A stretch of DNA of 19,800 bases from a virus (IMGVR_UViG_2711768043_000001), one strand, 5' to 3'; shown: positions 12,982 through 13,664, numbered from the stretch's first letter. Numbers and translations: made by a program. The notes: a model not told the origin generated them from the letters alone.

Positions 12982-13009
12982 CCAGGATTCCCCTCACATG
13001 TATTGCTGG

Positions 13010-13037
13010 TTGTAAGTCATAAATAGAGTGATAGAAT
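13010..13037 (+). promoter_or_regulatory. Sigma70-like promoter candidate for the moron gene
   Basis: TTGTAA (13010..13015), 16-bp spacer, TAGAAT (13032..13037), in an AT-rich intergenic stretch about 35 nt upstream of the ATG at 13073. Confidence 0.4.
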
Positions 13038-13043
13038 TAATGC

Positions 13044-13059
13044 ACATTTAGAAAAATGT
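13044..13059 (+). promoter_or_regulatory. Operator-like palindrome ACATTT-AGAA-AAATGT between the -10 element and the start codon
   Basis: Perfect 6-bp inverted repeat with a 4-bp spacer, read directly from the sequence. Confidence 0.3.
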
Positions 13060-13072
13060 TAATAGGCGAAAA

Positions 13073-13603
13073 ATGAAAGGCTATATCACAGCAAGTGTAA
13101 TTCTTGGAGCAGCGGCTATTTTTTCATCTCTCATAATCTCTGGCAACATCTCCTTTAAAGATGAACATATTATTCAGTTATCTGGAGGAGCCATAAAACT
13201 TGGTGATGTTTATAAAGAAAATAAATTGATAAGTGCAAAGATTATTTTTCCAGATAATCAGGGTGAACAGATTCTTGTTGTCGACGGCAATCCTGAAAAC
13301 TTTAAGGAGGATTTTCAGGAGAAATTAAATAAAGTAATAAAAACTTTAAATGCGTCAAAGAAAAAAGATGAAGAGAAAGTTAGCCTGGATAATTTAAGTG
13401 TTATTGAAGAGTCTAAACTAGAGCTCGTTTCTGCGGTGCGTTACTCTGCTCAGTATGTTCCTATGTTTACTCTGACGCTGGACAAAAAAGAAATTACCAT
13501 GCCTAAAAATACGGTAATATTTCCATTTGCCAGCGATGAAACAGCTAAGTATTTAAATGAACAACAGCAAAAGTATAAAGATTCGTTGTTTCTGACCCGC
13601 TAA
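13073..13603 (+). CDS. Moron-encoded hypothetical membrane-anchored protein (176 aa), function unknown; candidate accessory, exclusion or defence protein
   Basis: AT-rich ORF (hand-counted samples about 22-40% G+C, against more than 50% by eye in neighbouring genes). N-terminal hydrophobic helix ITASVILGAAAIFSSLIISG, then a Lys/Glu-rich soluble domain. It has its own upstream promoter-like signals and a downstream intrinsic terminator, and interrupts an otherwise contiguous tail gene series. Confidence 0.7.
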   Translation: MKGYITASVILGAAAIFSSLIISGNISFKDEHIIQLSGGAIKLGDVYKENKLISAKIIFPDNQGEQILVVDGNPENFKEDFQEKLNKVIKTLNASKKKDEEKVSLDNLSVIEESKLELVSAVRYSAQYVPMFTLTLDKKEITMPKNTVIFPFASDETAKYLNEQQQKYKDSLFLTR

Positions 13604-13623
13604 TTAATAAAATTCATTACAAG

Positions 13624-13654
13624 GCCACCTTCTAATAGGTGGCTTTTTTATTTT
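13624..13654 (+). terminator. Rho-independent terminator of the moron
   Basis: Stem GCCACCT (13624..13630), loop TCTAAT, stem AGGTGGC (13637..13643), then TTTTTTATTTT. Confidence 0.75.
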
Positions 13655-13664
13655 CGGAGTGTAT

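Follow-up and report, generated by a model that had tools for sequence, protein, structure and literature searches.

An AT-rich moron-type cassette encoding a predicted membrane-anchored protein at a probable cargo hotspot in the tail module of SfV-type prophages

Analysis of a 19,800-nucleotide stretch of viral DNA (IMGVR_UViG_2711768043_000001, hereafter the window) revealed a 677-bp AT-rich cassette with a single open reading frame (ORF) between the tail tape-measure gene and the DNA-circulation gene. The window covers the late genes of an SfV-type prophage: head genes organized in lambdoid style and a contractile tail of the Mu type. The cassette is very probably a moron-type accessory element in a cargo hotspot of an SfV-type temperate myophage, dispensable for the phage, long resident and under purifying selection. 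Its 176-aa product is strongly predicted to be anchored in the inner membrane with a periplasmic domain, for which superinfection exclusion after adsorption, at the inner membrane or in the periplasm, may tentatively be proposed as the most economical function.

By position, composition and terminator the cassette is a moron in the sense of Juhala and Hendrix, as summarized in PMC3594210; its two flanking genes are direct neighbors in SfV, SfI, SfII, SfIV and 26 of 60 sampled Escherichia coli records. The initial annotation of the window had already described a self-contained AT-rich moron at this place, and comparison of the locus in related prophages agreed with that description, the junction being empty in the four named phages and holding unrelated cargo in others. 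For SfV, SfI, SfII and vB_EcoM-689R6 both flanks match the window and the span between them is ~620 bp shorter. Only an annotated terminator hairpin separates the two flanking genes in SfII, and likewise nothing lies between them in SfIV.

Of 5,426 complete E. coli genomes, 179 (~3%) had the cassette at ≥95% identity, among them commensal, clinical, animal and environmental strains. The flanks occurred in 1,096 of the 5,426 genomes, and 171 of these 1,096 carried this cargo. Surveying the contents of the site in 60 matching records taken at even spacing, we found this cargo in 10 and an empty site in 26 (~43%). Another cargo was present in 13: the SKA5-type cargo in five, a transmembrane (TM)-anchored tRNA_anti-like OB-fold protein on the minus strand in five, and a bPH_1 protein, a two-TM protein (minus strand) and a 225-aa lipoprotein in one each. 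Only the DNA-circulation side matched in 10 records, which have other tape-measure lineages, and the remaining one was a spurious 79-bp match. At least seven distinct cargoes were recognized at the junction (Table 1). They measure ~0.45–0.8 kb, all are AT-rich (31–42% GC), two are antisense to the late operon, and six of the seven carry a signal peptide, a lipobox or a TM anchor. PADLOC gave no hits for six alternative cargoes. As cargoes antisense to the late operon cannot belong to it, they show that autonomous transcription units exist at the junction and imply autonomous promoters.

Aligning the left junctions of six alleles placed the left homology breakpoint at the tape-measure stop codon in each of them; the right one lies in the T-run just ahead of the ribosome-binding site (RBS) of the DNA-circulation gene. 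A transposable or integrative mini-element was considered and rejected: the cassette has a single ORF, and neither target duplication, terminal inverted repeats nor flanking direct repeats (terminator aside) were detected. Breakpoints at gene ends together with the lack of repeats indicate that cargo is swapped by recombination and not by transposition.

Some copies occur in unusual settings. The cassette was found on two records classed as plasmids, NZ_CP081716.1 (E. coli CX04, 37,667 bp) and NZ_CP146678.1 (MS 69-1, 64,057 bp). The 37.7-kb CX04 record has the size of a whole SfV-like genome and is possibly a phage circle after excision or else a phage-plasmid; in MS 69-1 both the chromosome and the 64-kb record carry the cassette. 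A truncated 104-aa allele (P0020) lies on a 37,667-nt contig, equal in length to the CX04 record. In NZ_CP101274.1 (E. coli EC21Z-014, 871022–873744), the stretch from tape measure over cassette to DNA-circulation gene is broken by an IS5-family transposase, and two hypothetical proteins are annotated.

The marked AT-richness claimed for the cassette, whose absence on a proper GC calculation had been named as grounds for abandoning the moron interpretation, was confirmed when that calculation was run. Compared with a mean GC of 0.553 (standard deviation 0.031, minimum 0.442) in 679-bp windows outside the cassette, its 34.1% is a dip of ~7 standard deviations, and GC at third codon positions (GC3) is 0.305 in the cargo ORF versus 0.56–0.61 in the tape-measure and DNA-circulation genes. 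The further suggestion of an inserted, compositionally foreign block holds for composition but not for recent acquisition, since homologues down to 30% identity share both the site and the AT-richness.

The fidelity to this site is high. The tape-measure gene lies directly upstream and the DNA-circulation gene downstream in 84 of 88 cargo-bearing loci; three of the four exceptions are clipped by contig ends and the fourth is a Lelliottia prophage remnant (L009). Homologues at 59, 53, 41, 33 and 30% identity hold the same position in SfV/Mu-type prophages from Leclercia and Edwardsiella as well as from metagenomes. The 59% homologue comes from an IMG/VR contig (L091), the 53% homologue from Leclercia and the 41% homologue from Edwardsiella anguillarum; the members at 33 and 30% lie between tape-measure and DNA_circ_N genes, and another 30% member is located directly upstream of DNA_circ_N.

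Between pairs of homologues the synonymous sites are saturated (proportion of synonymous differences, pS, 0.71–0.84), and the corresponding nonsynonymous value (pN) is 0.12–0.45; judged from these sequences, the cargo gene is under strong purifying selection. Every member has 31–40% GC and a GC3 of 0.23–0.40, compared to a GC3 of ~0.5–0.6 in the backbones. Low GC kept despite saturated synonymous divergence is a maintained property of an old resident and does not indicate a recent import. Within E. coli, 73 of 74 full-length copies are intact and show conservative substitutions; occasional truncations and one nearby IS5 insertion were seen, as would be expected for an accessory gene.

The gene also persists in prophages that have decayed. 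In Lelliottia amnigena (L009) it stands alone beside icd, and in Leclercia pneumoniae (L010) an SfV-like prophage ends next to a duplicated 3′ end of icd, fitting integration at icd. Apart from ~190 nt at the 3′ end of the tape-measure gene, the homology between the Lelliottia remnant and the Leclercia prophage takes in just the ORF with its promoter region and terminator. A second remnant, of metagenomic origin, retains the cassette with its terminator, preceded by ~260–330 nt of tape-measure 3′ end and followed by dinI. The two remnant ORFs share 86% protein identity with a pS of 0.72, a pN of 0.075 and a dN/dS (ratio of nonsynonymous to synonymous substitution rates) of ~0.03. In E. coli cM2a, the cassette lies in a visibly decayed prophage at tRNA-Thr. 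Intact, selected copies in dead prophages imply selection independent of virion production, which rules out a structural role and favors a benefit to the cell. Going by these comparisons, the cassette probably confers a benefit on the host. Conserved structural homologues in the same position had also been named as an argument against the moron interpretation. Homologues in that position do exist; they are, however, not structural, as viable phages lack the gene and remnants keep it alone.

The ORF was found exactly as the initial annotation had given it, on the plus strand with an ATG start, and a weak Shine-Dalgarno-like AGG precedes it by 6 nt. The promoter-like elements claimed upstream of it (TTGTAA-16-TAGAAT, with a TG extension, 35 nt 5′ of the ATG) are present, but they match at only 9 of 12 positions and are no commoner than in shuffled sequence (four such sites in the region versus 5.3 expected), and thus prove nothing by themselves. 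The 59% homologue (L091) has a stronger TTGTCA-16-TATAAT at equal distance and the Lelliottia remnant a TTGTCA-17-GAAAAT; no clear promoter-like site was evident upstream of the homologues in L005, L010, L012 and L093. In the 74 E. coli copies the hexamers are invariant, but overall diversity among these copies is low. The element is best described as a candidate lysogen promoter.

The clean intrinsic terminator was supported by folding (−15.6 kcal/mol, z = −4.6, with none of 200 shuffles folding as well), and a hairpin with T-run follows every homologue, with differing stem sequence. It is not peculiar to the insert, as a hairpin exists at the junction even in phages with an empty site. The empty junction of SfII (L002, 1998–2036) contains an annotated rho-independent terminator directly before the downstream RBS; the hairpin is thus a constant of the site, with or without cargo. 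In the late operon, its role may be to insulate the baseplate genes during lysogeny or to provide a landmark for recombination. An Rfam match to the Phe leader in the cassette was sub-threshold and just the terminator hairpin.

The product was said to have one N-terminal TM helix and a Lys/Glu-rich domain, which is in line with our results. The hydrophobic segment spans residues 2–23, the soluble part consists of 13% Lys and 9% Glu and contains neither Cys nor Trp, and no second TM or hydrophobic segment was found in the window protein or in the 63 sequences of the family alignment. The N-terminal flank of the helix is net positive and the C-terminal flank net negative in 51 of the 63 sequences, and the would-be −1 position for signal peptidase is Asp, Glu or Asn in 10 of 15 aligned close homologues (Gly in the remainder, the window protein included). 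Flank charges, −1 residues and the lack of a second hydrophobic segment together suggest that the signal anchor stays uncleaved and that the domain faces the periplasm. The product is accordingly strongly predicted to be bitopic in the inner membrane, with its short N-terminus in the cytoplasm, an uncleaved signal-anchor helix (N-in/C-out) and a periplasmic α/β domain of ~150 residues. The AlphaFold model based on the 63-sequence alignment is confident (predicted local distance difference test score 91). It comprises a β-hairpin (32–44), strands 46–58 and 67–72, a helix (74–93), strands 114–126 and 132–143 and a helix (149–171), the hairpin and sheet packing against the two long helices. Conserved positions in the alignment are few (G39, L43, G44, E49, N93, Y124, L134). 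As no catalytic motif is evident, the product appears more likely to be a binding protein than an enzyme.

The initial annotation could not assign the protein to a family, and it indeed belongs to no named one: Pfam, NCBIfam and PADLOC gave no match, and for PADLOC-DB 2.0 no defence model hit the window protein even at E ≤ 1. It matches PHROG 5485, which has no functional annotation, from end to end (E 3.8e-108, residues 1–176 to profile positions 1–176 of 176). A PHROG match to an endonuclease (E 0.014) was dismissed as noise, and the other PHROG matches (5485 and 34391) were to families of unknown function only. Public sources all label the protein hypothetical. A word-indexed search returned only E. 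coli copies and Leclercia/Lelliottia-type relatives at ~53–59% identity; an exhaustive profile search (E ≤ 1e-3) gave 78 clusters at 50% identity, most of them full-length (~165–200 aa) with the same end-to-end architecture, the others short fragments. A tblastn search of 50,697 phage records gave no match, either for the window protein or for two diverged family members. A Pfam scan of the 63 relatives gave scattered chance hits and no family in common. Searching the PDB with the single sequence and with the 63-sequence profile returned nothing below E 0.4. No relative of solved fold was found, and no fold shared with solved exclusion proteins such as Ltp, Llp and Sp.

The sole significant structural neighbor found by Foldseek was A0A2H4P829 (E 2e-6, TM-scores 0.56 and 0.66), a predicted lipoprotein of Pseudomonas phage ventosus. 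Like the window protein it is phage-encoded and envelope-anchored; it differs in having a lipid anchor instead of a TM helix, shares 14% identity, and its structure is predicted, not solved. Remote members of the family occur outside tail modules, for example in L095 (184–5219). There the member P0086 is located just after a gene for an S24 peptidase (LexA/CI-like, repressor-like), on a contig of ~35% GC. HNH_2-CTD11, MC7/MC6 and DUF2326 genes lie downstream of P0086, and the surroundings resemble a conflict or defence neighborhood.

If the protein acts in superinfection exclusion, the gene would be transcribed in the lysogen from its own promoter, insulated by the terminator; in lytic growth, late-operon transcription reading through would reach it as well. 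On the outer side of the inner membrane, the periplasmic domain would interfere when the tail tip/tape-measure complex of an incoming phage crosses the periplasm and opens the DNA channel, so that infection would be stopped after adsorption with the surface receptor retained. Periplasmic topology, the envelope-rich hotspot and retention in dead prophages argue indirectly for this reading. Several results weigh against it. The Pfam, NCBIfam, PADLOC, PHROG and PDB searches detected no homology to known proteins of exclusion or defence; remote family members are found away from tail modules; and the promoter match is weak and not clearly conserved across all homologues. Tape measures next to cargoes of 53% identity share either 35% or 75% identity with that of the window, so cargo does not co-vary with tape-measure lineage, and this speaks against a close co-evolution of the cargo with the tape measure of its own phage. 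Finally, second SfV-like tail modules were not depleted in cargo-bearing genomes (5 of 60 records versus ~12% extra places overall), although this is a weak test. A more far-reaching version is unlikely to hold in full: that selection keeps the coding sequence AT-rich, for instance for H-NS-dependent conditional expression, that the junction is a dedicated hotspot for interchangeable periplasm-facing proteins, and that the 176-aa family represents a new fold and a new class of exclusion protein, an inner-membrane-anchored decoy or blocker of the tape-measure/tail-tip complex of contractile-tailed phages.

A host-fitness envelope factor acting apart from phage, comparable to Bor and Lom of lambda and serving tolerance to stress, serum, colicin, bile or antimicrobials, or colonization, is a somewhat unlikely alternative. 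It would explain purifying selection in decayed prophages equally well, accounts for the periplasmic topology and fits the broad spread in E. coli and the absent similarity to defence families; morons with host-fitness roles are documented (PMC3594210). However, no similarity to Bor, Lom, Ail or virulence families was found, and the constant adjacency to tail-tip genes down to 30% identity is left unexplained, though inheritance of the hotspot could produce it. That same conservation of position, together with the weak promoter match, would suit an accessory role in the phage's own lytic cycle, where the product of antiterminated late read-through would spare the infected or lysing cell re-injection by sibling phages, or modulate lysis or passage through the envelope, instead of acting in the lysogen. 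The gene is on the strand of the late genes, its hairpin could be read through under Q-type antitermination, and annotations of related prophages, as well as the SfIV paper, include an antitermination Q gene. We consider such a role improbable, given the selected intact copies in remnants unable to make phage and in the decayed cM2a prophage, the other cargoes antisense to the late operon, and the viable phages without the gene.

Small TM proteins are common defence effectors, and the prophage hotspot and the remote member beside conflict genes (HNH_2-CTD11, MC6/MC7) in L095 would be compatible with a single-protein abortive-infection effector that senses infection in the envelope, collapses the membrane and kills the cell. 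A single TM helix with a large, well-folded soluble domain, no partner gene and no PADLOC hit make this quite improbable, as do the stable carriage of the gene by many genomes at 99–100% identity and the lack of any sign of an antitoxin linked to toxicity. A structural or assembly component of tail or baseplate, to which the homologues between tape-measure and DNA-circulation genes in several genera might point, is effectively refuted: the gene is absent from SfV, SfI, SfII, SfIV and 689R6 and replaced by unrelated genes in SKA5 and 720R4, and ~43% of the sampled sites are empty. Furthermore, its product has a membrane anchor and a predicted periplasmic orientation, it is the only phage gene surviving in remnants, and its GC3 of 0.30 is unlike that of every surrounding structural gene.

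Table 1. Coordinates of features in the window and of alternative cargoes at the same junction (positions preceded by an L number refer to that locus).
Feature	Position	Strand	Evidence or remark
Whole cassette, 677 bp, 34.1% GC, one ORF	12982..13658	+	
Promoter-like TTGTAA-16-TAGAAT with TG extension (candidate)	13010..13037	+	9/12 positions match
Weak Shine-Dalgarno-like AGG	13064..13066	+	Read from sequence
Cargo ORF, 176 aa, PHROG 5485 member	13073..13603	+	
TM helix, codons 2–23	13076..13141	+	KD19 up to 2.11; AF2 helix 2–23
Predicted periplasmic α/β domain, codons 27–176	13151..13600	+	
Intrinsic terminator, 10-bp stem, 6-nt loop, T-run; ends just 5′ of next RBS	13621..13654 (stem 13621–13646)	+	
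Tail tape-measure gene, left flank, 610 aa, 51% GC	11149..12981	+	PF10145 PhageMin_Tail, E 6e-27
DNA-circulation gene (Mu N/gp43-like, baseplate-proximal tail), right flank, 56% GC	13665..14993	+	PF07157 DNA_circ_N, E 4e-34
Tail-chaperone −1-frame ORF, overlapping, behind T_TTT_TTC slippery site near the end of the chaperone gene	10974–11156		
SKA5 cargo: unrelated 170-aa ORF, signal peptide	L001 2064–2576	+	
720R4 cargo: unrelated 162-aa secreted protein; tape measure of different lineage	L004 1881–2369	+	
TM-anchored tRNA_anti-like OB-fold protein	L096 915–1361	-	PF12869
N-terminally truncated copy of the OB-fold cargo	L098 914–1300	-	PF12869
Cytoplasmic bPH_1 protein	L097 938–1315	+	PF08000
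Two-TM protein	L099 855–1292	-	
225-aa lipoprotein	L100 913–1590	+	

Pfam matches order the window as HNH, small and large terminase, portal, protease, capsid, sheath, tube, tail chaperone and tape measure, followed after the cassette by the DNA_circ_N protein, a gpP/gp44-like hub and gp45. Homologues of gp46, gp47 and gp48, the tail fibre and a fibre assembly protein come next, assigned by position and by the order in Pfam-annotated Leclercia loci. The tail series had been described as tightly packed except at the cassette, which is essentially right; the sole other gap (11008–11148) is the −1-frame extension of the chaperone. Programmed −1 frameshifting is classical in tail assembly chaperones, and a terminator-like call at 10966–11156 by the terminator scan was a false flag in this frameshift region. 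The ORF of the DNA-circulation gene can be extended to a GTG at 13659; its start is most likely the in-frame ATG at 13665, which sits 5 nt after a GGAG and agrees with the annotated starts in SfII and SKA5. The end formerly given for the cassette (13660) lies inside the RBS region of this gene.

Two further sites drew attention. Upstream of the HNH and terminase genes, a 106-aa ORF (306–626) has a borderline Pfam match to GrlR (26.7 bits, cut-off 26.8), a negative regulator of the type III secretion system. The stretch around it (~160–838) has the second-lowest GC of the window (0.44), and the ORF could be a second accessory gene or moron. In Leclercia-type prophages (L005, 10013–11808; L103, 10012–11819) two added genes of ~503–507 aa and 94 aa without Pfam match are located between the DNA-circulation and gpP-like hub genes. 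As they are missing from the window and from L010, they mark a second variable site in the tail module.

Several envelope-located exclusion proteins act at or just after adsorption, among them P1 Sim, T4 Imm and Sp, and Ltp of the Streptococcus phage TP-J34, which targets the tape measure. P22 SieA and T5 Llp are, like the window protein, phage-encoded and envelope-located, and both stop infection at or just after adsorption. The nearest precedent is HK97 gene 15, a moron between the chaperone and tape-measure genes; its product becomes inserted in the inner membrane and prevents genome entry, an effect that depends on the incoming phage's tail region (PMC3594210). Both are single-gene morons of differing GC in the tail operon, adjoining the tape-measure gene, with their own promoter (here a candidate only) and terminator and an inner-membrane product. 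In contrast to gene 15, which lies upstream of the tape measure, the window cassette lies downstream; no Pfam family, YebO included, matches the window protein or its relatives as a link to gp15/YebO; the window protein has a predicted folded periplasmic domain of ~150 aa; and its phage is of the contractile SfV/Mu type, HK97 being a siphovirus.

In the hotspots of temperate phages, such as P2 old-tin and Z/fun and the accessory regions of Mu-like phages, unrelated AT-rich and often opposite-strand genes are swapped at a fixed junction of conserved genes (bioRxiv 10.1101/2024.10.15.618418; Vassallo et al., PMC9519451). The junction described here resembles them in this exchange of AT-rich accessory genes, whereas its cargoes are single small genes, mostly for envelope proteins, that match no known defence system. 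The Tai tail-assembly-interference systems are located upstream of packaging genes and are unrelated. A literature search found no paper on the gene or on the tape-measure|DNA-circulation junction as a hotspot, which is apparently undescribed.

A moron in a tail operon and a phage cargo hotspot are of a known kind, and finding such a moron would not surprise specialists. Noteworthy are the unannotated family, the fidelity to the site down to 30% identity with lasting AT-richness, and the persistence as the last gene left in decayed prophages. As the AT-richness has outlasted synonymous saturation, low GC alone should not be taken as evidence of recent acquisition. The junction is compact and easily searched, and could yield envelope-acting genes for phage resistance or host fitness that defence-island methods miss. 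For a new exclusion mechanism at the envelope in myophages, the locus offers a clean candidate that can be tested. If exclusion holds true, it would give the myophages of Enterobacterales a post-adsorption mechanism that is structurally new and needs a single gene and, with ~3% of complete E. coli genomes carrying the gene, could affect host range in phage therapy and competition between prophages.

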